DNA from: an uncultured Spirochaetota bacterium | GTDB taxonomy: Bacteria > Spirochaetota > Brevinematia > Brevinematales > JAOACQ01 | Direction: 5' to 3' | Length of the DNA stretch: 64,000 bases | Assembly: GCA_963783575.1 (NCBI GenBank) | Contig: CAWAOD010000004.1 | Coordinates: forward strand, 258,056 to 322,055 | Shown: one piece after another, positions 15,976-30,957 of the stretch | Layout of the letters: every line of letters starts with the position of its first letter | Numbering within the stretch: position 1 is the stretch's first letter | Program-made: the position numbers and the translations under genes | Notes under the pieces: model-generated | What the model was told of the DNA's origin: nothing | The model's database searches: none | The model's input: the letters and a program-made list of their open reading frames with translations, nothing else

Positions 15976-16362
15976 TTATCTTGCTAATTTGATAAAAGAA
16001 GTCCAAGTAATATAACCACCCATAACAATAACAAATAAACCGAATGCAAATCTTAAATAAGCGGTATTGATTTTTAAAGCAATTTTTGAGCATATCCATG
16101 CTGAGATAAGAAGTGAAATAGCAATGATTACAGCAGCTTTAATGTCAACATGACCGTTACGATAGTATTCAAAAGCAGAAGCAATGCTGACAGGCAATAT
16201 AAGAACAAAAAGGTTAGTCCCTACAGCCGTTTGCTGGGAAAAACCAACAAGATATACCAGAGCCGGGATAATAATTAATCCCCCCGCAAGACCGAAGAAA
16301 CCAGTTGTAGCGCCTGAAGCTATGCCAATTAAAATTAATAAGATATATTGATAATAATTCAT
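15976..16362 (-). CDS. TauE/SafE (sulfite exporter) family, half-size protein
   Basis: GFFGLAGGLIIIPALV...QQTAVGTNL motif. Confidence 0.85.
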   Translation of the reverse strand: MNYYQYILLILIGIASGATTGFFGLAGGLIIIPALVYLVGFSQQTAVGTNLFVLILPVSIASAFEYYRNGHVDIKAAVIIAISLLISAWICSKIALKINTAYLRFAFGLFVIVMGGYITWTSFIKLAR

Positions 16363-16509
16363 AAATTCTCCTTATGAAAAGTCCCTTTTTTTGAATAGAA
16401 TTAAAATCTTCAAATATTTACATAATCTAGGGAGTGGTAAATCAATATACTCAATCAATTAATCACCATTCCTATAAATTTATAAAAAATTTATTTACCG
16501 GTATATCCA

Positions 16510-16671
16510 TCAGGTTTTGAGAGGTTCATTAAATGACTCATAAGCAGTATAAAGCATAGTATTCCCGTCATAAGGATGTTCTTTTATTTTTCCATGACAT
16601 TCCACAACTTGTTTTTCACTGCATTCTTCATTTTCAAGCCTGCAGTTACAATCACAATTACTTTTATCCAT
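16510..16671 (-). CDS. small Cys/His-rich protein (53 aa), possible metal-binding peptide
   Basis: Manual translation MDKSNCDCNCRLENEECSEKQVVECHGKIKEHPYDG...; GGAGG RBS; directly downstream of arsR. Confidence 0.6.
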   Translation of the reverse strand: MDKSNCDCNCRLENEECSEKQVVECHGKIKEHPYDGNTMLYTAYESFNEPLKT

Positions 16672-16723
16672 TTTTTCCCTCCTTTTTTTGACAAGATTTA
16701 ATTTCGTCTTCTGAACAACTACC

Positions 16724-17011
16724 TTAACAATGACGTATTTGGGATGCGATGTTTATGATTTTATTCGCAGTGTCTTTTAACATTTCCTTATCTGCATAAT
16801 AATGTGTAAAATATCCTCTTTTCTCACCTTTTATGACACCTGCTTTTCTTAATACCTGAAGATGCTGAGAAACAGCAGCTTCTGAAATACCAATATTTCT
16901 TGCCAAGGCTCCTACACAAAAATCATTCGTCAATAAAAGAGTTAAAATTTTCATCCGCGTTTCATCAGCCAGAGCTTTTAAAACTTTAAGTAATTGATTC
17001 ATTATATACAC
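16724..17011 (-). CDS. ArsR/SmtB-family transcriptional regulator
   Basis: KALADETRMKIL...CVGALA...AVSQHLQVLRKAG wHTH; possible true start at ATG 17002. Confidence 0.92.
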   Translation of the reverse strand: MYIMNQLLKVLKALADETRMKILTLLLTNDFCVGALARNIGISEAAVSQHLQVLRKAGVIKGEKRGYFTHYYADKEMLKDTANKIINIASQIRHC

Positions 17012-17020
17012 ACCATTTAA

Positions 17021-17069
17021 TTAAGTATATACTTAAATATATAATATCATACTTAATTAATTTTGTCAA
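17021..17069 (-). promoter_or_regulatory. sigma70 promoter (TTGACA-N17-TATTAT) and perfect palindrome TTAAGTATATACTTAA, a likely ArsR autoregulatory operator
   Basis: -35 at 17064-17069, -10 at 17041-17046, 16-bp palindrome at 17021-17036. Confidence 0.7.
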
Positions 17070-17285
17070 TAGTGTTATATTAAAATTTTTGAAGTATCAA
17101 AATTCATTTTAAAAATGAAAATTCTTGTATATTAAAATTTTATTATCTGTTTCCGGTAATCATAAATTTCCAGCATAATATAGATTATAAGCCGTAACTC
17201 ATCAAAATTAGCAAAATTTTAATTATTGATTTAGAATATACAAAATAAAATCCCAAAGTTGAAATAAAAACCCTGGAGCAAAACA

Positions 17286-18317
17286 ATGATTCCAAAAGGA
17301 ACGTTTACAGCTATCGGCAGTTTTCCGCATACTAATATTAATAAAATTACTTCAATCATAATTGATGCTTTCACGGACATGCCCGTATGGCCTCAATTGC
17401 CGAAGACCGGGTTCATGGAAAACATGTATGTCCAGTTCAGCGAGGGCCTTCCATGCATAAAAATCGATGAGAATAATCAAAAAATTCATTTTGATACATC
17501 GAATAATATATTCGAAGCAATCCAGCCGGTGTATGAAAACTTCCTTGCCGAAAACTATGATCACTTTGCGGTCACGGAAAAATACGCGATCGGATTGTAT
17601 CATTTCAGGGACCGGATGGAGAAAAAGGGGAAAGCTCCTTTTGTAAAGGGCCAGATTTTGGGACCTGTCAGCATGGGGCTTACGCTCACGGATGAAAACA
17701 AAAAATTGATAATCTATAATGAACAGATCACCGACGCCATAGTAAAAACACTGGTCTGCAAGGCGGTCTGGCAGGCCCGGTTCCTCCAGAAATATGGTGA
17801 AAAACCCGTGATTTTTATCGACGAGCCCTATCTTGTGTCGTTCGGCTCGGCTTATATAAACCTGTCACGCGAACAGGTAATAACTATGCTTAATGAAATC
17901 ATCGACCCCCTTCACAAAATTGGTGTTGTCACCGGCATTCATTGCTGCGGTAATACAGACTGGTCGATTCTTACCGATACGAACGTCGACATTATAAATT
18001 TCGACGCTTACGATTATTCCGACGGTATCATGCTTTATCCGGAAAAAATAAACGGATTTTTAAAATCCGGAAAATATCTTGCCTGGGGAATCGTGCCGAC
18101 TTCCGAAGAAAAGATAGGCAAAGAAACCGCAAACAGCCTGCTTGAGAATCTTGTTAAAAAACAGGAGAAGCTTGCTACGCTCGGTGTTGAAAAGGATAAA
18201 ATCACAAATAACATCATACTGACGCCGTCCTGCGGAACCGGGTCGCTTTCCGAGACTGCTTCGGAAAAAATAGTGAAGGTTTTAAAAGAACTATCTGAAT
18301 TATATAAAGAAAACTAA
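17286..18317 (+). CDS. folate-independent 'core' methionine synthase (methylcorrinoid:homocysteine methyltransferase, MesB-like)
   Basis: Single MetE C-terminal-like barrel of 343 aa with TAIGSFPH, WPQLP, KGQILGP, FIDEP, IHCCG and TPSCG (Zn ligands). Confidence 0.8.
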   Translation: MIPKGTFTAIGSFPHTNINKITSIIIDAFTDMPVWPQLPKTGFMENMYVQFSEGLPCIKIDENNQKIHFDTSNNIFEAIQPVYENFLAENYDHFAVTEKYAIGLYHFRDRMEKKGKAPFVKGQILGPVSMGLTLTDENKKLIIYNEQITDAIVKTLVCKAVWQARFLQKYGEKPVIFIDEPYLVSFGSAYINLSREQVITMLNEIIDPLHKIGVVTGIHCCGNTDWSILTDTNVDIINFDAYDYSDGIMLYPEKINGFLKSGKYLAWGIVPTSEEKIGKETANSLLENLVKKQEKLATLGVEKDKITNNIILTPSCGTGSLSETASEKIVKVLKELSELYKEN

Positions 18318-18327
18318 GGAAACAAAA

Positions 18328-19101
18328 TTGTCAAAGTTGATAGGCTTCATAGGTAAAGGCGGAACGGGAAAATCCACAATATCAGCGCTGGTCTTAAAGC
18401 ATGCCCTTAATTCCGGCGTTAAGCCCATCCTGGTAATCGACTCCGATCCGAACAGCTGCCTTGGAGAGCTCCTCGCGCTCAGGGTAGAATCGACAATCGG
18501 CAATATTAAGCAGGATTTAATTAAAATGAAGAACGATGCAAGCGGTACTTCCATATCGAAATACGATTATTGCGAATATGCACTGAACAATTCCGTTATA
18601 GAATCAAACGGTTTCGATATGGTTGTAATGGGAAAACCGGCGGGTTCCGGATGCTATTGTATGATCAATAATGTCGTCCAGATTATGATAGAAAAACTTA
18701 AAAAGAACTACCGGGCGGTCATCGTCGATTGTGAGGCAGGTCTTGAGCACCTCAGCAGAAAGACGCTTGGAAATATCGATACCGCATTTATTATATCCGA
18801 CCTATCCAGAAAGGGTGTAGCCACAGGCATCAAGCAGGCCTGTATGATGAAGGAGCTTGATATCAAAACCGGAAAAAATTATCTGATTATAAATAATGTC
18901 ATGGAAAAGCCCGCTGAAGGATCTTACGAAGGACTGACAGGCGGTCTAAATAATACCGACCTTGAATTTGCCGGGTTTGTCAGGAATGATAAGAATATCG
19001 CGGAATTTGAAATGGCCGGGAAATCATTGCTGAATTTGCCGGGCAAGTGTATTGCGCTTAATGATATTGAGACAATTCTGGAAAAAGTTTCGGTTATTTA
19101 A
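18328..19101 (+). CDS. cooC: CODH/ACS nickel-insertion ATPase (CooC/AcsF)
   Basis: GKGGTGKST, IDSDPN, GCYC and DCEAGLEHLSR motifs. Confidence 0.92.
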   Translation: MSKLIGFIGKGGTGKSTISALVLKHALNSGVKPILVIDSDPNSCLGELLALRVESTIGNIKQDLIKMKNDASGTSISKYDYCEYALNNSVIESNGFDMVVMGKPAGSGCYCMINNVVQIMIEKLKKNYRAVIVDCEAGLEHLSRKTLGNIDTAFIISDLSRKGVATGIKQACMMKELDIKTGKNYLIINNVMEKPAEGSYEGLTGGLNNTDLEFAGFVRNDKNIAEFEMAGKSLLNLPGKCIALNDIETILEKVSVI

Positions 19102-19118
19102 TTATAAAAGAAGGTTAT

Positions 19119-21011
19119 ATGGAAAGAAAATTAAGCATCGACCCCGCATCCGAAAAAATGATAGGCAGGGCTAAAAGTGAAAATATAGAAATTGTCTGGG
19201 ACAGATTGAAAAAAATGACTCCACAGTGCGGATTTGGAACGCTCGGGATATGCTGCAGTATCTGCAATATGGGGCCATGCAACATTGATCCTTTCGAGGA
19301 GGATAAAAAGAAAGGAGTTTGCGGAGCGGACATCGATCTTATTGCGGCGAGGAACCTGGCTCGGAAAGTAGCGGCTGGTTCCGCGGCTCATTCCGACCAT
19401 GGCAGGGACATCGCGGAGGCTTTTTTTGAAATCGCGGAGGATAAAACCGCCGATTTTCATGTGATAGATGAAGAGAAACTTATCAAATTGGCGCTTGAGT
19501 TTGATGTTATTTCCGATAAAAAAACGGTCCGCGATATAGTCAAAGAACTTGCGCCGAAAATGATCTCGGAGTTCGGAAAATACGACGGCACTATAACAAT
19601 GATAAAACGTTCGCCGTCAAAGCAGAAAGAAATATGGGAAAAGCAGAATATGCTCCCCAGGAATATAGACAGGGAAGTTGTTGAAATCATGCACAGGACA
19701 AATATGGGGGTCGACAATAATTATAAGTCTATCCTTATCGGCGCTATGAAATGCGCGCTTTCCGACGGCTGGGGCGGCTCAATGATCTCATCCGAATTGA
19801 CCGACACAATCCTTGGTTCTCCGAAGCCAGTCAGGGCTGTTGTAAATCTGGGAGTTTTAAAAAAAGAAATGGTAAATATAGTTGTTCATGGGCATGAGCC
19901 GCTTCTTACCGAAGCGGTTTACCGGGTTGTAAAAGACGGCGAATTTACGGAAGAGGCAAAAAAAGCCGGTGCGGAAGGAATAAACATAGCCGGTATATGC
20001 TGTACGGCCAATGAAATCCTGATGAGGCATGGAATCCCTGTGGCTGGCAATTTTCTTCAGCAGGAACTCGCTCTTCTGACTGGCGCGGTTGAAGTTATGA
20101 TGGTGGATGTTCAGTGCATCATGCCTTCAATATCCGACGTGGCAAGATGCTTTCACACAAAGGTTATCACAACATCGATCAAGGCAAAATTCCCGGAAAT
20201 CGTAAAACACATTCAATTCGAGCCCAAAAAGGCGCTGGAAACCGCCAGGGAAATCATAAAAATCGGGATAGATAATTTTAAAAACAGGGAAAAAAGCAGG
20301 GTTATGATACCTGAAGAAACAATGAACCTTGTCGCCGGATTTACCGCGGAAAATGTTAAAACCATCCTGGGAGGGACATTCAGAAAATCATACCGGCCGC
20401 TAAACGAAGCGATTGTTTCCGGTAAAATCAGGGGAATCGCAGGCGTCATCGGATGCAACAATCCTAAACTCACGCACGATTTTCATCATATTGCGCTTGT
20501 AAAGGAACTTATTAAAAATGATGTCCTCGTTCTTCAAACCGGTTGTTCGGCGATCGCTTGCGCCAAGGGCGGCCTACTGAAGCCCGAAGCCGCAAAAGAA
20601 CTCGCGGGTCCCGGCCTTTACGAGATATGCGAAGCTGTTGGAATACCTCCTGTTCTGCATTTCGGTTCATGCGTGGACAACAGCAGGATACTGAATGCCG
20701 CGGTCGAATTGATCAACGAGGGAAGGATCGGTAAAAGTTTTGACGAACTGCCGGTCGCGGGAAGTGCCCCCGAATGCTGGATGAGTGAAAAATCGATCGC
20801 TATCGGATTCTATTTTGTCGCGTCCGGTATTTACACCGTGCTGGGAATGCCGCTTCCGATGATGGGAAGCAGGAATGTAGAGAATTTTCTCTGTTCCGAA
20901 GTTGAGGAGATTACCGGCGGTAAATTCGCTTTTGAGGAAGACCCGGTCAAAGCGGCGCATTTGATGATCGATCATATTGAGGGAAAACGGAAAAAACTGG
21001 GGTTGAAATAG
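19119..21011 (+). CDS. cooS: anaerobic Ni-CO dehydrogenase catalytic subunit (CooS/AcsA)
   Basis: CGFGTLGICCSICNMGPC, HSDH, HGHEP, ICCTANE, GCNN, TGCS and GSCVDNSR motifs. Confidence 0.97.
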   Translation: MERKLSIDPASEKMIGRAKSENIEIVWDRLKKMTPQCGFGTLGICCSICNMGPCNIDPFEEDKKKGVCGADIDLIAARNLARKVAAGSAAHSDHGRDIAEAFFEIAEDKTADFHVIDEEKLIKLALEFDVISDKKTVRDIVKELAPKMISEFGKYDGTITMIKRSPSKQKEIWEKQNMLPRNIDREVVEIMHRTNMGVDNNYKSILIGAMKCALSDGWGGSMISSELTDTILGSPKPVRAVVNLGVLKKEMVNIVVHGHEPLLTEAVYRVVKDGEFTEEAKKAGAEGINIAGICCTANEILMRHGIPVAGNFLQQELALLTGAVEVMMVDVQCIMPSISDVARCFHTKVITTSIKAKFPEIVKHIQFEPKKALETAREIIKIGIDNFKNREKSRVMIPEETMNLVAGFTAENVKTILGGTFRKSYRPLNEAIVSGKIRGIAGVIGCNNPKLTHDFHHIALVKELIKNDVLVLQTGCSAIACAKGGLLKPEAAKELAGPGLYEICEAVGIPPVLHFGSCVDNSRILNAAVELINEGRIGKSFDELPVAGSAPECWMSEKSIAIGFYFVASGIYTVLGMPLPMMGSRNVENFLCSEVEEITGGKFAFEEDPVKAAHLMIDHIEGKRKKLGLK

Positions 21012-21434
21012 ATGAAAAAAATATACTGCGACATTCATAAATGCCTGAACTGCAGAAGATGCGAATTTGCCTGTTATATCAAGAACGCGGGTGTTAATAA
21101 TGTCTTCGAGGCTGTAAAAGCCGGTACTGCGCCCGTAAAGAACATCGATCTATTAAGGATCGGGGAAGAATCATTTCCCTTCAACTGCAGGCAGTGCGAT
21201 GAGCCGTTCTGCGTTGAAGCATGCATTTCGGGAGCGCTCTTTATCAATGAATCCAACGGAAGAATTTCATTCAACATCGATAAATGCGTGGGATGCTGGT
21301 CCTGCATTATGAAATGCCCGTACGGCTCTGTAAAAATGCTGAAGGGAAAAGCCTCAAGGTGTGACCTTTGTTCCGGCAGGGAAATACCGGAATGCGTAAA
21401 CGCCTGCCCGACAAGGGCGCTTGTGATTGAATAA
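21012..21434 (+). CDS. cooF: CooF-like multi-[4Fe-4S] electron transfer protein
   Basis: CLNCRRCEFAC, CRQCDEPFCVEAC, CVGCWSCIMKCP and CDLC...CVNACPT motifs. Confidence 0.85.
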   Translation: MKKIYCDIHKCLNCRRCEFACYIKNAGVNNVFEAVKAGTAPVKNIDLLRIGEESFPFNCRQCDEPFCVEACISGALFINESNGRISFNIDKCVGCWSCIMKCPYGSVKMLKGKASRCDLCSGREIPECVNACPTRALVIE

Positions 21435-21457
21435 ACCATATTTTCAGGAATAATAAA

Positions 21458-22765
21458 ATGAAAAGTTTTGTCATAATCGGAAACAGCGCTGCCGGGATCG
21501 CCTGCGCTGAAGAGATAAGAAAAAGCGATAAAAGCTCATCAATTACGATTATTACCGATGAAAAAGGCGCGGCGTACTCCAGATGTCTTTTATCATATTT
21601 TATTTCAGGCCAGATCGGCGGAAATGAAATGCTTTATAAAAATGATGATTTCTATGAATTAAACAATATTAAGCTGATGGACGGTACAAAGGCGGTATCG
21701 ATCGATCCTTCAGGCAAAAAAGTCAATATCGGCGGAGGATCGGTTTCTTACGACAAACTTCTCATATCTACCGGGGCGAATCCAAATAACCAGTATACTA
21801 TACCTGCAGGCTGCGAAGGAATACATACCCTGCGTTATATTGACGATGCCCTGAAAATCAACGAAAAGCTTAACGGTGTTAAAAACGCCGTTGTTCTGGG
21901 ATCGGGGTTAATAGGAATGAAAATAGCCTACGCTGTTTATAAAAAAGGAATTAACGTAACAATCATAGCAAAATCCGGCCATATTTTACCGCAGATGCTG
22001 GACAAAGAATCCTCAAGTTTTCTGAACTCAATTATAAGTTCTAAAAATAATTCAGGATCAAGCGGCCTGGGGGGTGCGCTTGTCAAAATAATTACAAAAT
22101 TGGACGCCGACGGTTTTATTTTCAAAAACAATATGGTTTGCGGAGTAAAATTAAAAAACGGTGAAACCATTAACTGCGATATGGTCATTGTCGGGAAAGG
22201 TGTTAAGCCGAATATCGAACTCGGGATAACCTGCGGGCTTGAAGCGAATTACGGCATAATTACCGATAGTAAAATGAAAACCAGCGATAATGATATTTAT
22301 GCGGCAGGCGATGCCGCTGAAACAGTTGATTTGATAACCGGTGAAAGAGGAATAAAGGCATTGTGGACCGCGGCAGTGGAACAGGGCAAAATAGCGGGAA
22401 AAAACATGCTGGGGATTAATGCGGATTACCTTGGTTCCACTTTGATGAATTCAGTCGAATGTTTCGGTATTCCCTGCATTTCATCGGGAAGTTTGAATGC
22501 AAATGATTCCGAGATTTATGATTACAGGCCGGAAAATAAAACCTCCCTCAGGAGAATATTTGTAAATGGTGGAAGAATTCGCGGTTTTATCACTATCGGT
22601 GATATTGCTTTTTCCGGCATACTGAACGGCCTTTTAAAAGATAAAAAAAACGTTTCGGAAATCAAGGGTATGTTTGGTTCCGGAAGATTGAGCCGGAGCG
22701 ATCTTTTGAGCTGTTCCGGCGAGGAAACGATTATTTCTTTGATGAGTAATAGATTTGATGAGTAA
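21458..22765 (+). CDS. FAD-dependent NAD(P) oxidoreductase (FNOR type)
   Basis: IIGNSAAG, YSRC, GSGLIG and IYAAGD motifs. Confidence 0.88.
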   Translation: MKSFVIIGNSAAGIACAEEIRKSDKSSSITIITDEKGAAYSRCLLSYFISGQIGGNEMLYKNDDFYELNNIKLMDGTKAVSIDPSGKKVNIGGGSVSYDKLLISTGANPNNQYTIPAGCEGIHTLRYIDDALKINEKLNGVKNAVVLGSGLIGMKIAYAVYKKGINVTIIAKSGHILPQMLDKESSSFLNSIISSKNNSGSSGLGGALVKIITKLDADGFIFKNNMVCGVKLKNGETINCDMVIVGKGVKPNIELGITCGLEANYGIITDSKMKTSDNDIYAAGDAAETVDLITGERGIKALWTAAVEQGKIAGKNMLGINADYLGSTLMNSVECFGIPCISSGSLNANDSEIYDYRPENKTSLRRIFVNGGRIRGFITIGDIAFSGILNGLLKDKKNVSEIKGMFGSGRLSRSDLLSCSGEETIISLMSNRFDE

Positions 22766-22786
22766 TAGAAAGGAAGGATATAGCCT

Positions 22787-24964
22787 ATGTCAAAAATAGT
22801 CGCGAGTTCGGTTATAAAAGGCACATCGGAATTATTAAACAGTGTAAAGGAAAAATACAGCATGGTTGCCGCGGCTAAATCACCCGGGCATCCGGCCGTT
22901 TTTCCCGGAACAGCATACTACGCACCGATAATTTTCACAATGACCGGATATAAGATTGAAAACCTCAAGCAGATCGGGGATTTTTTCCCTGTTCTTGAAA
23001 AATTTATATCTCCTTTACCTTTTGATGACAACTGGCTGCCCTACCTCAGCCAGGCCCTGGACGGCGGTATTGCAGCTCTGATGCTTGAAGAAATACTTAT
23101 GCTGCTTAGATACGCGGAGGGTTTTGAGCCCGCGAACGGATACGAAGGATTTCTCTCCGACACAAGGATGAGGACTCTCGGCGTTCAGCTAGTCGACGGC
23201 AGGATTCCCGGGTTCGCGGCCATTATCGGCGCTCCTGCGGACAGCAAAACCGCTGTAAAAATAGTCCGTGAGCTTCAGGAAAGGAGCATCCTTATATTTT
23301 TAAGCGGTAAATCAAATAATATAGCCATGAAAGATCAGCTTGAGTCCGAGGGTGTGGAAATGGGATGGGACTCCTATATTGTTCCGCTTGGCGAGGATAC
23401 GGAGTCCACCATCTTTGCCCTGAACTGGGCGATCCGGGCCGCTTTGACATTCGGCGGACTTCAGGGCGGCGACGCTCAAAAATGCCTCGAATACTGCAGG
23501 GACAGGGTTTTTGCTTTCGGGCTCGGACTCGGCGGAATCGACGATCTGAAATACGCGACGGGTGCAGGAGCAATAGCTATGGGTTTCCCTGTTATCTCAG
23601 ATACTGACATTCCTGAAATCCTGGCAACAGGAGTCTGCACATACGAAGCTCTTGTCAAAGAAAAGGATTACGGTAAAATCGTTCAGAAGGCGATAGAGAT
23701 CAGGGGCATCAAAGTAAAGCTTTCAAAGCCCCCAATCCCGGTATTATATAGTTCCGCTTTCGAAGGCGAGAGGATCAGGAAAGAGGATTTATATATCGAG
23801 TTCGGCGGAAAAGGCGGAACCGGGTTTGAGCTCCTCATTTCAAAAGATTTAAACGAACTTGAAAATAAAAAAATAACAGTCACTGGAAAAGAGATAGATA
23901 ACTGCGTTGCGGGTGAAAAACTTGACCTCGCGATCCTGGTTAAAGTCGCCGGCAGGAATATGCAGAAGGATTTCGAGCCGATTCTGGAAAGGCAGTTCCA
24001 CAGGATTATGAATTACGCGATGGGTGTTATGCATATCGGCCAGCGTAATTTTGTCTGGATAAGGATAGGCAAAAACGCGAAGGAGCAGGGTTTTAAATTC
24101 CGGCATCTCGGCGAAATCATATACACAATGATAATGAACGAATACGGAAAACTTGTAGATAAAATCGAAGTTGAGATAATAACCGATTCTAATGAGGTAA
24201 TGAAGCATCTTCCCGAAGCAAAATCCGTTTACGAGGAAAGGGACAAGAGGATTGGGGAAATGACGGATGAAAGCGTTAATGTTTTTTATTCATGCCTCCT
24301 TTGCCAGTCTTTCGCGCCCAATCATGTATGCATTATCACACCCGAAAGACTCGGATTGTGCGGCGCATATAACTGGCTCGACGGAAAAGCCGCGTACCAG
24401 ATAGAGCCGACAGGCCCGAACCAGCCTGTAGAAAAAGGCGAAGCAATCGATTTAAGGCTCGGCCAGTGGAAAGGAATAAACGAGTTCGTTCATAAATACT
24501 CAAATAAATCGATCGACAGTTTCAGCGCGTATTCCATAATCAGTGATCCTATGACTTCCTGCGGCTGTTTTGAGTGTATTGTTGCCATTCTGCCGGGCAC
24601 ATGCGGAGTGATGATCGTCGACAGGAATTACCCGGGAATGACGCCTTCGGGAATGACTTTTTCCACCCTCGCAGGCGTTGTCGGCGGCGGCCGTCAGAAC
24701 CCCGGGTTTTTAGGCATCGGCATAAATTACATAATAAGCGATAAATTCATCAGTGCAGAGGGCGGATTGAGACGAGTCGTCTGGATGCCTTCGGATTTAA
24801 AGGAGAGATTAAAACCCGAACTGGAACGAATATCGGTAAAAATAGGAACACCGGGCCTGCCCGATAAAATCGCAGATGAAACCGTCACAACTGATTTGAT
24901 GGAGCTCGCCGCGTTCCTTACGGATAAAAAGCACCCGGCCCTTGAAATGGGAGAACTTTTCTAG
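22787..24964 (+). CDS. acsB: acetyl-CoA synthase (bacterial type)
   Basis: YSCLLCQSFAPNHVC, PERLGLCGA and DPMTSCGCFE A-cluster motifs. Confidence 0.97.
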   Translation: MSKIVASSVIKGTSELLNSVKEKYSMVAAAKSPGHPAVFPGTAYYAPIIFTMTGYKIENLKQIGDFFPVLEKFISPLPFDDNWLPYLSQALDGGIAALMLEEILMLLRYAEGFEPANGYEGFLSDTRMRTLGVQLVDGRIPGFAAIIGAPADSKTAVKIVRELQERSILIFLSGKSNNIAMKDQLESEGVEMGWDSYIVPLGEDTESTIFALNWAIRAALTFGGLQGGDAQKCLEYCRDRVFAFGLGLGGIDDLKYATGAGAIAMGFPVISDTDIPEILATGVCTYEALVKEKDYGKIVQKAIEIRGIKVKLSKPPIPVLYSSAFEGERIRKEDLYIEFGGKGGTGFELLISKDLNELENKKITVTGKEIDNCVAGEKLDLAILVKVAGRNMQKDFEPILERQFHRIMNYAMGVMHIGQRNFVWIRIGKNAKEQGFKFRHLGEIIYTMIMNEYGKLVDKIEVEIITDSNEVMKHLPEAKSVYEERDKRIGEMTDESVNVFYSCLLCQSFAPNHVCIITPERLGLCGAYNWLDGKAAYQIEPTGPNQPVEKGEAIDLRLGQWKGINEFVHKYSNKSIDSFSAYSIISDPMTSCGCFECIVAILPGTCGVMIVDRNYPGMTPSGMTFSTLAGVVGGGRQNPGFLGIGINYIISDKFISAEGGLRRVVWMPSDLKERLKPELERISVKIGTPGLPDKIADETVTTDLMELAAFLTDKKHPALEMGELF

Positions 24965-25253
24965 GCGGCATCGTGTCGCACGCCGAACTGGTGTTCGGCG
25001 GCCTTATTGTTGTTTGAAAAGTTATCATGGCACATCAGTGTGCCCTATACAGCTTGTGTTGGGCGAACTGCGCTAAGTCTTGCAAAGAAACGTTCACCGA
25101 GTATATTGCTTCTTTGTACAGCAGCATCATGAGGGGGACATTTTAATTAGAAGATATCTGGTCGCTATTGAATAGTTCCCTCGTAGTACTGCAAAGCAGG
25201 AAATGATAGACTCGGGAACCAGAACATTGCTTAAAGGTTAACAAGGAGTCTCT

Positions 25254-26183
25254 ATGAAGGAAGAATTAAAAGAAAAATGGAATGGAAAAGTAAACGAGGT
25301 AAAATTATCCGAAAAAACAGCAATCGGTGGAGAAACGGCTTTTTCATATTCATTGTTTGAGGGAAGTTTCCCGAACAGGCCGAAGATCGCGATGGAAATA
25401 AATGATATATACCCGGCGAACTGGCCGGAGCATTTGAGGGAATCCATAGGAGACAGTCATTTAAAAACCTCTTCATTATGGGCAAAAAGAATATCGGAAG
25501 AATTCAAGCCTGATCTGATAATGTTCGATATGACCGGTACCCATCAGGATAAAGAGAACATTTCACCGGAAACTGCCGTTGATAACCTTAATTCCGTCCT
25601 GGATGTAACTGACTTACCCGTCATATTAAGGTCGGCCGGTAATTTCGAAAAACAGAACAGTGTAATGTCAAAATGCGCCGAAAAAGCAAAAAGACAGGTT
25701 ATTCTGGGTTCAGCATCACAGGACAATTACCGGACAATAACCGCTTCCGCTCTGGCGTTCAACCATTATCTGATCGCCGAATCCCCCATCGATGTTAACA
25801 TCGCGAAACAGTTGAATATCCTCATAACACAGCTGAACTTCCCTTTAAACAGGGTAATAATGGACCCTTTGACCGGGGCTCTGGGTTACGGCCTGGAATA
25901 CAGTTATTCCGTGATGGAAAGGATCCGTTTGCAAACACTCAACGATGATAAAATGATGACTACGCCGATGGTCTGTTTTGTGGGACAGGAAATCTGGAAA
26001 ATTAAAGAAACTCGTCTGGAGGATAACAACCTCGGAGAACGTTCACGCCGAAGTATCAATTGGGAGACCTCAACTGCGGTTACACTTATTCTTTCCGGCG
26101 CAAATATAGTATCCGTGAGGCATCCCGAATCTTTGAAACAGATAAAAGGTTTTATAAATTCATTATTTAACGGGGGGAATTAA
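25254..26183 (+). CDS. acsD: corrinoid iron-sulfur protein small subunit
   Basis: SPIDVNIAKQLN, MDPLTGALGYGLEYSYSVMER and RHPES motifs. Confidence 0.95.
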   Translation: MKEELKEKWNGKVNEVKLSEKTAIGGETAFSYSLFEGSFPNRPKIAMEINDIYPANWPEHLRESIGDSHLKTSSLWAKRISEEFKPDLIMFDMTGTHQDKENISPETAVDNLNSVLDVTDLPVILRSAGNFEKQNSVMSKCAEKAKRQVILGSASQDNYRTITASALAFNHYLIAESPIDVNIAKQLNILITQLNFPLNRVIMDPLTGALGYGLEYSYSVMERIRLQTLNDDKMMTTPMVCFVGQEIWKIKETRLEDNNLGERSRRSINWETSTAVTLILSGANIVSVRHPESLKQIKGFINSLFNGGN

Positions 26184-26184
26184 A

Positions 26185-27510
26185 ATGGCATTAACAGGAC
26201 TTGAGATTTTTAAATTACTGCCTAATAAGAACTGCAGGGAATGCGGAGTGCCGACCTGCCTTGCTTTCGCTATGAAGCTCGCGGCCAAGTCCGCAGACCC
26301 GGCTTTATGCCCATATATTTCAAAAGAATCGATTGAGATTCTCGGTTCTTCCCAATCCCCGCCGATTAAAAAACTGGTTTTCAAAGCTGGCGGAAGCGCC
26401 TTTGAAACCGGTTCCGAAACGGTAATGTACAGGCATGAAAAAACATTCGTCAACAAAACGCTTATAGCTCTTGAAGTAAGCGATTCATTGCCGGAAAGCG
26501 AATTCAAATCAAGAGTTGAAAATATAAAATCGGCCGTATTTGAAAGGGTCGGTGAAAAGCTTTTCCCCGAAGGTATATCGCTTGTTTTCGAGTCGGGCAT
26601 AAAAGAGACATACTTAAAATGTTATAAAGAACTTCAAAGTCTTGATAAAATAATAGTGCTCTCCGGAATTACACCGGAAATACTGAAAGAAATAATTTCC
26701 ATCGAGAGTAATTTTTCCCGTCTGGCCGTTAACTCCTTAAGGATGGAAACACTTGATAATTTCAAGGATTATCTTGTTAATAAAGACATAAAAGTTGTCC
26801 TGGAGGCTGATGATGCGGACAAACTTTTCGAGCTTGTCATTAAAGCGGAAGGCTCGGGTTTAAAGAATCTTATTTTGAAGCTGAAATCCGGATCAATTGC
26901 AGGTCTACTGGAAAATAATATATCATTGAGACGGCTTGCATTAAAGAAGGGCTTCAAACCGGCGGGATACCCTGTGATCAGCGAATGCGCCGACGAATTA
27001 TTCACAGCAATAACAGGCATCTGCAAATATTCATCAATACTCATTCTGAAAAAATACGATGCCTCTTCACTATTCCCGCTTCTAACCTTAAGGCAGAACA
27101 TTTATACCGATCCTCAAAAGCCTCTTCAGATCCAGCCGGGGATTTACAATATCGGTGAGCCTTCTGGGGCGTCGCCGCTGCTTGTCTCCACGAATTTTTC
27201 TTTGACCTATTTTATCGTTTCAGGAGAAGTCGAAAATTCTCCTTACAGCGCGAGGCTTCTTGTTACTGATTCCGAAGGAATGTCGGTTTTAACAGCCTGG
27301 TCCGCAAATAAATTTTCCGCAGATTTGATCGCGAAGGGAATTGCCGGTTCAAACATTGAGGATATCATCAGCCATAGAAAACTGATTATCCCGGGTTTTA
27401 CTGCGATTCTGAAGGGGGACCTGGAGGATAAATTAAAAGGCTGGGAAATTATGGTCGGGCCCCAGGAAGCTTCCGATATTCCGCAATACCTGAAAGAAGT
27501 CTGGAAATAA
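26185..27510 (+). CDS. acsC: corrinoid iron-sulfur protein large subunit
   Basis: NCRECGVPTCLAFA, RQNIYTDPQKP, STNFSLTYF and GMSVLTAW motifs. Confidence 0.96.
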   Translation: MALTGLEIFKLLPNKNCRECGVPTCLAFAMKLAAKSADPALCPYISKESIEILGSSQSPPIKKLVFKAGGSAFETGSETVMYRHEKTFVNKTLIALEVSDSLPESEFKSRVENIKSAVFERVGEKLFPEGISLVFESGIKETYLKCYKELQSLDKIIVLSGITPEILKEIISIESNFSRLAVNSLRMETLDNFKDYLVNKDIKVVLEADDADKLFELVIKAEGSGLKNLILKLKSGSIAGLLENNISLRRLALKKGFKPAGYPVISECADELFTAITGICKYSSILILKKYDASSLFPLLTLRQNIYTDPQKPLQIQPGIYNIGEPSGASPLLVSTNFSLTYFIVSGEVENSPYSARLLVTDSEGMSVLTAWSANKFSADLIAKGIAGSNIEDIISHRKLIIPGFTAILKGDLEDKLKGWEIMVGPQEASDIPQYLKEVWK

Positions 27511-27516
27511 AACACT

Positions 27517-29277
27517 ATGGCAAATATAAGGCTCATCTCAGGTAATACTGAAAAAACCGTCCGAACAGAAAAGGGAACAAGCCTTCTGTCACTGATCCGC
27601 GACAATGGCTTTTTTATAGAAGCCCTTTGCAGCGGCGAGGGTAAATGCGGAAAATGCACTGTTAATATAAACGGTAATCCTCAACTCGCCTGCAAAAAAA
27701 TGATTGATGCCGATATTTCCGTCATCATTCCGGATAGTGAGAATATTTTTCAGGATAATAAAATAGCCGCTCCTTCCGGATACGGGAATTTAAATCCAAT
27801 TATTAAAAAAATAATTCTGGATATTAATAAAGATGAAAGAGAACCATATTTGTCCGACTTTGAATTTATCGGCCGTTTGTTAAGAAAGCAGGGAATAACT
27901 GTATCCGGACCGGATAATATTCCTTTAATAGCTGAAATATCAAGGATTTCCCATTTGGATAAAAAAGCAGCAATATTTCTAACAGAGAAAAATCAAAGTT
28001 ACGAAATTATAGACATTTCGGAAAATTATGATGAGAAAAATGTGGGGCTGGCAATAGACATAGGAACAACAACGGTTTCCATCACATTGATCGATCTGGA
28101 AAACGGCAGACTGGCCAATTCCATTTCTTTTTATAATCCCCAGATTATTTACGGCGCTGATATAATCCACAGAATTATCTTCGCCCAGAAAAATGAAAAT
28201 CACAAACTGCTTAAAGACAGGCTAATTGATGAAATTCAAATGGCTATAAGACATTTCTTTGTATGGAATCAGGTTCAGCCTGATGAAATAAAAGCTGTGG
28301 CAGTTTCCGGTAATACTACGATGATCCATTTTTTCCTGGGCCTTCCTTCAAGGTTCATCAGGGAAGAGCCTTACAGTCCCGCAGCAAGGTCATTCCCACC
28401 TCTTAAAGCATTTTCAACTCTTAATTTATTGAATAAAAGCAGGCTATTCATTTTGCCATGCCCTGCGAATTACCTCGGCGGAGACCTTGTGTCCGGAGTC
28501 ATAGCCGCGTGTTTTCACAAAAATGACGGCATATCGGTCCTGCTTGATCTGGGTACTAACGGCGAAATCATCATCGGAAACAAAGACTGGCTGATAGGCT
28601 GCGCGTGTTCGGCAGGACCGGCATTCGAAGGCATGGGGCTTTCCTGCGGGACTAGGTATAAAAAAGGCGCTATAACGGATGTTTATGCCAAAGACGGTAG
28701 TTTTGAATATTCGGCAGCCGGAGGTGAAAAACCATGCGGCATATGCGGCTCCGGTATAATCAGCCTTGTAAAATGCCTCAAGGATGAAAACTTCATCGAC
28801 AACAGGGGAAAGTTTACAGAAAAAGTTAAGGATAAAATTAACGGTAAAAAAGTATTTATACTTTTTAATAAAGATACAACAATGAACCTTGAAGACATTT
28901 ATGTTACTGAAACCGATATCGGAAATATTCTCAGGGCAAAAGCCGCAATCTACGCTGGAATGAGGCTGATCTTTAAAAAACTTTCCCTCGATTTTTCAAT
29001 GGTTGATACCCTTTACATATCCGGCGGCATAGGCAATTCACTCAATATACAGAACGCTCTTGATATCGGCCTCTTCCCTGACCTGGATCCCGGAAAAATT
29101 AAATTCATAGGCAACTCGTCCCTCAATGGGGCAATTGCTTTCCTTCTCTCAAAGGAAGCCAGGGATGATTCTGACGAAATCTTTAAGAAAATAACCTACA
29201 TCGACTTGAGCAGCGAGCCGGATTTTATGGACGAATTTACGGCCGCGTTATTTATCCCGCATACTGATTATGCTTGA
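27517..29277 (+). CDS. acsV: corrinoid reductive activator (RACo/AcsV; 2Fe-2S plus ASKHA ATPase)
   Basis: CSGEGKCGKC, DIGTTT, DLGTNGE, ACSAGPAFEG and GICGSG motifs. Confidence 0.9.
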   Translation: MANIRLISGNTEKTVRTEKGTSLLSLIRDNGFFIEALCSGEGKCGKCTVNINGNPQLACKKMIDADISVIIPDSENIFQDNKIAAPSGYGNLNPIIKKIILDINKDEREPYLSDFEFIGRLLRKQGITVSGPDNIPLIAEISRISHLDKKAAIFLTEKNQSYEIIDISENYDEKNVGLAIDIGTTTVSITLIDLENGRLANSISFYNPQIIYGADIIHRIIFAQKNENHKLLKDRLIDEIQMAIRHFFVWNQVQPDEIKAVAVSGNTTMIHFFLGLPSRFIREEPYSPAARSFPPLKAFSTLNLLNKSRLFILPCPANYLGGDLVSGVIAACFHKNDGISVLLDLGTNGEIIIGNKDWLIGCACSAGPAFEGMGLSCGTRYKKGAITDVYAKDGSFEYSAAGGEKPCGICGSGIISLVKCLKDENFIDNRGKFTEKVKDKINGKKVFILFNKDTTMNLEDIYVTETDIGNILRAKAAIYAGMRLIFKKLSLDFSMVDTLYISGGIGNSLNIQNALDIGLFPDLDPGKIKFIGNSSLNGAIAFLLSKEARDDSDEIFKKITYIDLSSEPDFMDEFTAALFIPHTDYA

Positions 29278-30957
29278 TCTGCCATTCCCCTCTGGCTGAA
29301 TGGCGGCATTAACTCTTCGAAAAAGGTCTTCCCTGTCCCAATTAGAACCACGGTATGCTATTTTTGGATTATTGACCGGCATGGAAAGTAAATCCCGCCC
29401 GTCAGTGTGATATTCCAGTTTATTTCCGGATTCTAAAAGGACAGTCGGCGCAAAATCAACCATTGATGCGGCTTGTTGGTTTTCTTTGTAAACTTTACGG
29501 CCGGGTGTCAAAATAAACAATGGAATAAACTCAAAGTAAAGATTATTATAGGAATATGAACTCTGCTTAAAATTCCCCAATTTGATTTCGGGACAATGGT
29601 CGCCATAGATAAAAATTATTGTGTTGGACAAATTCCCAAGCTCTGAAATAAATCCTTTAATAGACTGATCCACATAAGCCATAGAATTAAAGTAATTTCT
29701 TTTTGTTTCATCATTTATATCCGAAAAATCGGAATTGGTATAATAATTCAGGGCATTAATAAATGGACCATGGCTTGTCATTGTGATAATATGATAAAAA
29801 AACTGCCCTCTTTGAGTTTTAATAAAATTCAAAACATAATTAAATACATCATTATCCGCCGCTCCCCAGCCTTTTTCCCTCAGCTTCATTTTATATATAT
29901 CATTGAAGGCATCAAATCCCATCTGTTTAAACGCAAACGCCCGGTTCCAGAAAGAACCCTCATTTCCATGGAAAGCAAAAGCCTGGTAATTGCAATTCTT
30001 AAGTACTTTAACCATTGAGTTTTCATAATTATAATTATTCATTTTGATGGTAGGATAATTGTCAAGAGGCTCAATACTGTTCAATATCGAAACCTCAACA
30101 TCTGAAGTTCCGCCTCCTTTATGGTAGCTCAGAACATATGGATAATAAACTGAATTTGTTGTAAGCGAGAAAAGATAAGGCATAACAAGCCTGCCATTAT
30201 GCAAGGTTGATATAATATGGGACTCCATGGATTCTACCTGGATAAAAATAAAATTTGATTTCTTATTACTGCCCGGGGATTTTACTATCCTTATGCTGGG
30301 CTTCAATTGATTGGTCAGAGACTGCATTTTATCTCCATTACTCGATAAATAATCTTTTATCTGGTAATATAGAAGCCCGTATTCAAAAACAACTTTTGAT
30401 TCTCCGCCAAATTGTATACTGGTCCGTTTTGAACGAAACTGGAAAATATAAAACAAAGAAAAACTTATGATTAGAATGACTATTAACGACAACAAAGCTT
30501 TTACAATGTTAAAACCAGAGAATAATATCCTGCTTTTAAGTAAAAAAAACAATGCGGGAACATCAATAAAAAGTACAAACAATTGTAACTCAAAAGGAAT
30601 AGCCCATTTTTTCAACAGTAGAAACACATCACCGGATAAGGAACTTGCCGTATGAACATTTAAATATTGTTTAAAATAAAAGAAATAAGTCATATTGACT
30701 AAAATATAAATAAACTGGACTGAATAGATTAGTATGAAATATCTTCTTTTCTCCATATTAACAAAAAACCAGAAATAGATTAAAACAAAAAGAAAAGTTA
30801 AAACTGAATGAAACAATAAATTTGTAAAACTCACTTCGTAATTTATTAGATTCATATAGAAAAAAAGGATTTTTATTGTATTGAAAAACAAAAAAATAAT
30901 AAAAAGCGCATATCCGGTAAAAGGTACATTTTTGAAATAATATTTTTCGTCTGCCAT
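29248..30957 (-). CDS. LTA synthase/sulfatase-family membrane phosphotransferase
   Basis: N-terminal TM helices; IQVES, GTSDVE, TMTSHGPF and YGDH motifs. Confidence 0.85.
   Translation of the reverse strand: MADEKYYFKNVPFTGYALFIIFLFFNTIKILFFYMNLINYEVSFTNLLFHSVLTFLFVLIYFWFFVNMEKRRYFILIYSVQFIYILVNMTYFFYFKQYLNVHTASSLSGDVFLLLKKWAIPFELQLFVLFIDVPALFFLLKSRILFSGFNIVKALLSLIVILIISFSLFYIFQFRSKRTSIQFGGESKVVFEYGLLYYQIKDYLSSNGDKMQSLTNQLKPSIRIVKSPGSNKKSNFIFIQVESMESHIISTLHNGRLVMPYLFSLTTNSVYYPYVLSYHKGGGTSDVEVSILNSIEPLDNYPTIKMNNYNYENSMVKVLKNCNYQAFAFHGNEGSFWNRAFAFKQMGFDAFNDIYKMKLREKGWGAADNDVFNYVLNFIKTQRGQFFYHIITMTSHGPFINALNYYTNSDFSDINDETKRNYFNSMAYVDQSIKGFISELGNLSNTIIFIYGDHCPEIKLGNFKQSSYSYNNLYFEFIPLFILTPGRKVYKENQQAASMVDFAPTVLLESGNKLEYHTDGRDLLSMPVNNPKIAYRGSNWDREDLFRRVNAAIQPEGNGRSSIISMRDK

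Follow-up and report, generated by a model that had tools for sequence, protein, structure and literature searches.

A 64,000-nucleotide stretch of DNA from an uncultured Spirochaetota bacterium (contig CAWAOD010000004.1, positions 258,056 to 322,055; hereafter the window) encodes, at window positions 17286-29277, nine plus-strand open reading frames (ORFs) in the order mesB-cooC-cooS-cooF-FNOR-acsB-acsD-acsC-acsV. In this cluster, a short MesB-type methionine synthase heads the genes for a CODH/ACS (carbon monoxide dehydrogenase and acetyl-CoA synthase), a ferredoxin, a FAD/NAD(P) oxidoreductase (FNOR), and the corrinoid iron-sulfur protein (CoFeSP). The cluster is real, its gene content and metal-ligand motifs are present, and AcsE, which links methyl-tetrahydrofolate (methyl-THF) to CoFeSP, is absent. 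We consider it rather probable that the cluster is an add-on route to methionine, in which acetyl-CoA is cleaved, the methyl group of methyl-CoFeSP is transferred to homocysteine on MesB, and the CO is oxidized. ACS would cleave acetyl-CoA and methylate CoFeSP, MesB would pass the methyl group from CoFeSP directly to zinc-bound homocysteine, CooS-CooF-FNOR would oxidize the released CO and thereby pull cleavage forward, and AcsV would rescue CoFeSP with oxidized cobalt, such that the module would supplement the methyl supply for methionine and S-adenosylmethionine (SAM) beside the folate route. What we infer from the gene set is that homocysteine accepts the methyl group, that CoFeSP donates it, that the module runs in the cleavage direction, and that NAD(P)+ is the final acceptor. 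The features of the locus are as follows (window coordinates, strand, assignment):

17286..18317, plus: probable MesB-type core methionine synthase, 343 amino acids (aa), from residues, spacing, and fold
18328..19101, plus: CooC/AcsF-type nickel-insertion ATPase of the MinD/CbiA type, from family matches
19119..21011, plus: CooS/AcsA nickel CODH (TIGR01702, 655 bits; cut-off 478)
21012..21434, plus: CooF-type ferredoxin, 4x[4Fe-4S], with four cysteine motifs
21458..22765, plus: FNOR, a Pyr_redox_2 flavoprotein (PF07992, PF18267)
22787..24964, plus: AcsB, full length (NF040764, 950 bits; cut-off 800; PF18537)
24965..25253, no strand: spacer of 289 bp with an 8-bp hairpin at 24981-25000
25254..26183, plus: AcsD, CoFeSP small subunit (NF003376, 353 bits; cut-off 280)
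26185..27510, plus: AcsC, CoFeSP large subunit (NF003195, 454 bits; cut-off 306)
27517..29277, plus: AcsV/RACo, reductive corrinoid activator (PF14574, PF17651, Fer2)
16724..17011, minus: divergent ArsR/SmtB regulator (NF033788, 81.6 bits; cut-off 55) that may control the operon

Intergenic gaps along the cluster are, in order, 10, 17, 0, 23, 21, 289, 1, and 6 bp, and the nine genes are presumably co-transcribed. The initial annotation had described a co-oriented cluster with a single long spacer, and all nine ORFs and the 289-bp spacer are indeed found where it placed them. It had also reported no acsE and no methyl-branch genes in the cluster; none of acsE, metF, fhs, or folD lies among the nine genes.

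A MesB-type protein heads the cluster

The protein encoded at 17286..18317 is very probably of the MesB type, with a predicted methylcobalamin:homocysteine activity, as judged from the names of its homologues, its predicted fold, and its motif spacing. Among 8000 candidates scored, 6717 were relatives of this protein, and many of these are annotated as methionine synthase. No Pfam family matched the protein, PF01717 included, and searches of PDB sequences with the protein and with its alignment returned no true match, whereas a fold search succeeded: Foldseek of the predicted model (32-row alignment, pLDDT 93) ranked MetE structures first, the best being Thermotoga maritima MetE (1t7l; E 1.6e-9, TM ~0.6 on the query). 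The model comprises a single MetE-type catalytic barrel without a folate domain, and its 343 aa fall within the MesB size range (at most ~386 aa). MesB was defined and tied to CoFeSP by Price 2021 (PMC7857596), and the AcsC and AcsD expected of a MesB-carrying genome are here encoded in the cluster itself. The predicted zinc ligands H219, C221, D240, and C316 and the predicted homocysteine-binding residues S12 and D179 are invariant across 32 aligned homologues. In DET0516 of Dehalococcoides the corresponding residues are given as 214/216/235/311 and as S15 and D177 (PMC7857596, available text). The H-D spacing of 21 and the H-C spacing of 97 are therefore identical in the two proteins, while S12 and D179 were assigned by motif and lie 8 and 3 residues farther from the histidine than their DET0516 counterparts. 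The MesB threshold against DET0516 is 173 bits in the available Methods and 130 bits in the Results of that source. Against the best Dehalococcoidia homologue in each of 15 genomes, the 17286 protein scored 215-293 bits, which exceeds 173 bits in all 15, and it scored 250-291 bits against the full-length homologues of a further Dehalococcoidia search; the four DET0516 spacings that were compared are found in six homologues. A MesB tree was built as a quick version, with neither bootstrap nor MesA, MesC, or MesD references. Zinc set, spacing, and MetE fold thus agree with the MesB-like identity that had been proposed for the lead protein.

A predicted complex of MesB with AcsC scored 0.47 versus 0.00 for the best control, with at least 66% of contacts shared between runs and a partner pLDDT of at least 88. 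In the benchmark of this score, 18 of 157 solved complexes reached the mark with a value of at most 0.60, as did both mismatched pairs that passed (2/215), and the prediction lends slight support to a MesB-AcsC contact.

CODH/ACS, CoFeSP, and electron-transfer genes

The metal-binding positions of the enzymes are in place. CooS retains Cys 37, 45, 46, 49, 54, and 68, which we take to be the D- and B-cluster ligands, together with H259, C295, C333, C446, C476, and C518, presumably those of the C-cluster, as assigned from motifs. AcsB retains Cys 503, 506, 515, 525, 592, and 594, which we assume to form the A-cluster, and AcsC retains Cys 17, 20, 25, and 42, presumably its [4Fe-4S] ligands. The closest PDB matches of CooS are 6t7j (679 bits) and, second best, the CODH of the Clostridium autoethanogenum CODH/ACS complex (6ytt_B, 624 bits); AcsB carries the N-terminal CODH-docking domain (PF18537) and is closest to 6ytt_A of the same complex. 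Because AcsB is full length and 6ytt is its nearest solved relative, with the 6ytt CODH the second-best match of CooS, the two proteins are likely to form a bifunctional complex. FNOR is the predicted electron outlet of the CODH. AcsV contains every RACo Pfam domain, yet scores 500 bits on NF040756, below the cut-off of 800. A second CooF-like/FNOR-like pair is encoded on contig C11 (451569-453448), after glutamate-synthase-type genes and with no CODH beside it.

Recurrence of the mesB-headed cluster

Related loci were examined for mesB context in the best 80 of at least 579 confirmed loci. In these, mesB lies beside acsB in 15 and beside cooS in 16, for a total of 17 loci with either, so that the arrangement is not due to chance; many of the 80 loci are short, and these counts represent a floor. 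Conservation of gene order, raised as a check in the initial annotation, is borne out: mesB-cooC-cooS-cooF-FNOR-acsB-acsD-acsC is repeated in four loci (L021, L033, L077, and L084), three of which have an extra cooC, and the cluster type recurs across phyla. Conversely, 53 metagenome loci selected by AcsB, many of them short or distant, included a single mesB (L115), at the cluster end with folD and metVF. AcsB-AcsD fusions of 1064-1261 aa also occur in mesB-led operons (L042:13790-17284, L068:14729-18514, L083:13807-17328, and L043:13772-16966), with both domain sets verified in L042 and L068.

The distribution of AcsE, MetH, and MetF was tallied in the 17 genomes with mesB near cooS or acsB and in 33 controls, picked from the remaining 63 genomes for their longer loci. 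It should be noted that completeness values are absent for the compared genomes and that a stand-alone AcsE-type match could be a piece of a split MetH. Stand-alone AcsE was found in 4 of the 17 genomes (G042, G043, G049, and G047, the last cut by a contig end), with one further unclear AcsE-like protein in G054 (339 aa, 180 bits), as compared with 27 of 33 controls, plus 2 with a broken gene, when stand-alone genes scoring at least 200 bits were counted. Among the 12 genomes in which mesB directly heads the acs run (the tight group), none encodes a clear stand-alone AcsE. Moreover, a search with the MetH pterin domain left all of the best 80 of at least 579 mesB loci without an acsE-type match, yet detected such a gene in six other acs clusters. 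A pterin domain in an 806-1250-aa frame is present in 10 of the 12 tight-group genomes (identified as MetH in G045 and G052 and by size in the others) versus a MetH-sized frame in 4 of 33 controls. MetF is encoded by 10 and Fhs by 7 of the 12, and 2 show no MetH, MetF, or Fhs. With Fhs in only 7 and none of the three in 2, a full methyl branch seems not to be required by the module.

Methionine synthesis and the methyl branch in the host

The host assembly (G000) totals 4.9 Mb in 18 contigs and is 89.85% complete. Within it, stand-alone acsE was not found, since PF00809 matches only dihydropteroate synthase and the pterin domain of MetH; full-length MetE and metF were likewise not found. A MetH of 820 aa is encoded on contig C14 (510285-512747), folD is intact, and fhs is present but split in two frames as assembled (C9:481229-482861). 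In a second cluster (C11:477977-481510), the gene of a corrinoid protein, split over two frames, is grouped with genes for a homocysteine methyltransferase, a MetH activation domain, and a protein of the UroD/MtaA fold. This cluster sits, within C11:471943-487402, among FAD-linked oxidoreductases and aromatic-acid transporters, and the region may encode a path leading from methoxylated aromatic compounds to methionine. Since fhs, the corrinoid gene (C11:477977-478647), and acetate kinase (C13:162292-163498) are each in two frames, indel errors in the assembly are suggested. PFOR-motif (pyruvate:ferredoxin oxidoreductase) proteins are present, and a rough motif scan revealed no formate dehydrogenase accessory motif.

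The absence of metF is probably an assembly gap, which is more likely than loss. In the same-genus genome G001, metF shares a block with hisB/hisH/hisA and two hypothetical genes; the host assembly is without this whole block, yet retains hisD and hisF. Additionally, purE was not found in the host assembly. In five other relatives metF is followed by paaK; the host has different genes before paaK, on one contig, and G001 does not have that order. The host is the sole family member with ACS and the sole one without metF, and the idea that metF was lost once the operon arrived was rejected as unproven, the neighbouring block being missing as well. The host thus very probably keeps a folate route to methionine via MetH and, probably, MetF, and the cluster would therefore be an addition rather than a replacement. 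The self-contained methionine module of the initial annotation stands as an acsE-free set; because the host has MetH and a second homocysteine methyltransferase cluster, with fhs and folD elsewhere in the genome, it is not the only methionine route. Likewise, of the observation that was to have overturned that reading, acsE together with a complete methyl branch elsewhere, acsE is missing from the assembly and much of the methyl branch is present.

The cluster was likely acquired laterally, this being the simplest reading of its distribution, because relatives of the host lack acsB and mesB and the nearest MesB homologues are in other phyla. The host RecA shares 85% identity with a protein labelled 'Brevinematales bacterium'; acsB was found in none of 40 relatives, and a MesB profile found nothing in relatives except one weak 49-residue match. 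The closest MesB homologues are labelled Fusobacteriaceae, Elusimicrobia, Omnitrophota, and Thermoproteota. One Brachyspira proteome is listed with a core synthase that, by the table layout, is probably MesB (PMC7857596 Table S1, as available).

Direction of the module and alternative explanations

Acetyl-CoA cleavage requires about +54 kJ/mol and thiol methylation yields about -30 kJ/mol. Because cleavage is uphill and methylation repays only part of the cost, CO must be removed. From potentials of -520 mV for CO/CO2 and -320 mV for NAD(P) (PMC4676187, available text), electron transfer from CO to NAD(P) is calculated at about -39 kJ/mol, so that a plain FNOR could accept electrons from CO but could not drive CO2 reduction without bifurcation. 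Reverse ACS with CO oxidation, as the initial annotation had it, is in our moderately confident view the likeliest direction, although the idea is not new, having been put in print for other organisms (PMC7005905, PMC7857596). Several points weigh against an acetyl-CoA-to-methionine role. A 12-kb module that depends on nickel, cobalt, and iron is costly for a job that MetH already does in most hosts: the MetH-sized pterin protein and MetF are retained in 10 of 12 tight-group genomes, and metF and MetH are each present in 11 of 11 family relatives of the host, which itself has MetH and probably MetF. One FNOR-linked CODH mutant indicated CO2 reduction (PMC6344411, available text). The assembly has one CooC-family gene (18328..19101), while many related operons have two. 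Further, the tight group was defined post hoc on loci already inspected, all genomes are gapped metagenome assemblies, several of the operon carriers are related to one another, and no protein identifiable as DET0516 was found in the Dehalococcoidia genomes searched.

MetH could instead make methionine from methyl-THF, with MesB running in reverse to methylate Co(I)FeSP with methionine and ACS adding CO generated from reduced ferredoxin. In this scheme, MetH and MesB would jointly take the place of AcsE; alternatively, the carbonylation of methionine itself to acetyl-CoA would act as a sink for electrons. This shuttle is unlikely. It would account for the excess of MetH-sized proteins in the tight group over controls, for the frequency of MetF, and for the fhs, folD, MetH, and PFOR-motif proteins of the host. 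In L008 and L011 a multi-subunit NADH-dehydrogenase-like set replaces FNOR (N-terminal sequence only), and ACS condensation, which is strongly downhill, could pull an uphill step. However, moving a methyl group from a thioether to cobalt would itself cost about 30 kJ/mol, to judge by the analogous Mtr reaction, 5 of the 12 tight-group genomes lack Fhs, and Dehalococcoides mccartyi runs the cleavage direction; since MetH and MetF are ancestral in a host family that is without ACS, they would be expected there with or without the module. The broader version, in which a mobile folate-decoupled CODH/ACS module with MesB replacing AcsE, feeding methionine to CoFeSP in a shuttle with MetH and MetF, constitutes an unrecognised acetyl-CoA-forming Wood-Ljungdahl variant in a fermenting spirochaete and several other phyla, its direction depending on which electron module lies next to cooS, appears similarly improbable.

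An ordinary Wood-Ljungdahl pathway, with acsE unassembled or CoFeSP methylated by MetH through its AcsE-like pterin domain, and with MesB a side tap for methionine, would fit an assembly that is 89.85% complete and missing at least one block, a MetH pterin domain with 250 bits against the cut-off of 259 for the AcsE model NF005719, and the AcsE found in 4 of 17 genomes. We give it a small chance, in view of the tight group without a clear stand-alone AcsE (the 339-aa, 180-bit protein of G054 being unclear), the formate dehydrogenase accessory motif not found in the rough scan, and the position of acsE itself, which follows acsC in AcsE-type clusters (L103, L107, L108, L111, and L113), where acsV follows in the host. 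That the MesB-like protein methylates another thiol, such as sulfide or a small thiol carrier, for methyl disposal or methylsulfide formation tied to CO or acetyl-CoA oxidation, is very unlikely: its fold is common to the MtaA/MtbA thiol methyltransferases (weak NCBIfam matches; 4ay7 in Foldseek) and the hosts already own MetH, but MetE structures occupy the top Foldseek ranks, and both conserved homocysteine binders of MesB named in the available text of PMC7857596 are invariant here.

Regulatory sequences and other features of the host

A sigma-70-like site (11/12 match, minus strand, 17069-17041) lies beside the divergent ArsR/SmtB gene. Promoter and terminator scans were about at chance level (39 versus 26.8 +/- 5.5 and 15 versus 13.6 +/- 4.5, respectively), and no Rfam match, thus neither a SAM nor a cobalamin riboswitch, was found at 16000-30000. 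Short partial copies of the 289-bp spacer occur at other genome sites.

Elsewhere in the window, a polyketide synthase cluster (32767-63659), unusual in a spirochaete, includes stand-alone acyltransferases (AT), a gene resembling that of 3-hydroxy-3-methylglutaryl-CoA synthase, and a free ketosynthase, a set that we take to be typical of beta-branching trans-AT systems. Contigs C7 and C17 have a G+C of 0.52 and 0.49 versus ~0.37 elsewhere, possibly reflecting contamination or mobile DNA. Further, hgcA and hgcB are encoded at C9:485685-487079, ~3 kb from fhs, with scores above the NCBIfam cut-offs (409 and 116 bits). The host is thus a predicted mercury methylator, and this methylation would be one among several possible methyl sinks.

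Comparison with known systems

The core-MetE of D. mccartyi (cbdbA481) methylates homocysteine from methylcobalamin and not from methyl-THF (Deobald 2020 PMC7005905), and the methionine methyl group of this organism derives from acetate C2 (PMC7005905; PMC7857596; Zhuang 2014 cited there). Direct transfer from CoFeSP to homocysteine was proposed for D. mccartyi, which is without CODH, AcsE, MetF, and MetH (PMC7005905; these sources as available). The spirochaete shares with D. mccartyi MesB (cbdbA481, DET0516) the 343-aa single barrel, the H-x-C...D...C set and its spacing, CoFeSP, the lack of AcsE, and the acetyl-CoA-to-methionine proposal. In contrast, mesB is in a SAM synthetase operon in D. 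mccartyi and heads the acs genes here; D. mccartyi has no CODH and its CO leaves the cell, whereas CODH-CooF-FNOR is included here; and D. mccartyi has no MetH or MetF, whereas the spirochaete keeps MetH and probably MetF. The host therefore resembles the incomplete Dehalococcoides-type pathway in its missing AcsE but not in its CODH and MetH, and its assembly does not contain the AcsE of the canonical acetogenic Wood-Ljungdahl pathway.

Methanogen mesB-acsC-acsD operons also cluster mesB with CoFeSP genes; they are archaeal, and the available text and Fig 3B legend name acsC and acsD and not CODH, CooF, or FNOR (PMC7857596). The cluster of Candidatus Tritonobacter lacicola (PMC9324843) shares cooS, cooF, acsB, acsC/D, and an incomplete methyl branch, and mesB heads the cluster in our locus from this organism (L008). 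In the available text, that cluster is read as CO oxidation/CO2 fixation with mesB unnamed, and a methionine role is given only for CODH-less relatives. The Ni-CODH/CooF/FNOR unit, described as a putative CO-oxidation unit (PMC6344411), has the same cooS-cooF-FNOR order, here embedded between mesB and acsB; the words 'methionine', 'MetE', and 'AcsE' do not occur in its available main text. No paper was found that joins mesB to CODH-CooF-FNOR and acsBCD in a bacterial operon, in a search that did not extend to subscription papers and with CODH-context supplements of PMC6344411 that may list such a case.

Because mesB-headed clusters are usually without acsE, cooS and acsBCD in uncultured bacteria are not safely read as carbon fixation. 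Price 2021 calls for a test of CoFeSP as the methyl donor of MesB, and the operon supplies a ready reconstitution set (MesB, CoFeSP, activator, ACS, and CODH). If CODH-CooF-FNOR does remove CO, this would answer the CO release observed in Dehalococcoides. The route itself was already published as a proposal; what the spirochaete cluster likely adds to it is that the CO sink is part of the operon, that the module has spread laterally, and that it coexists with MetH.

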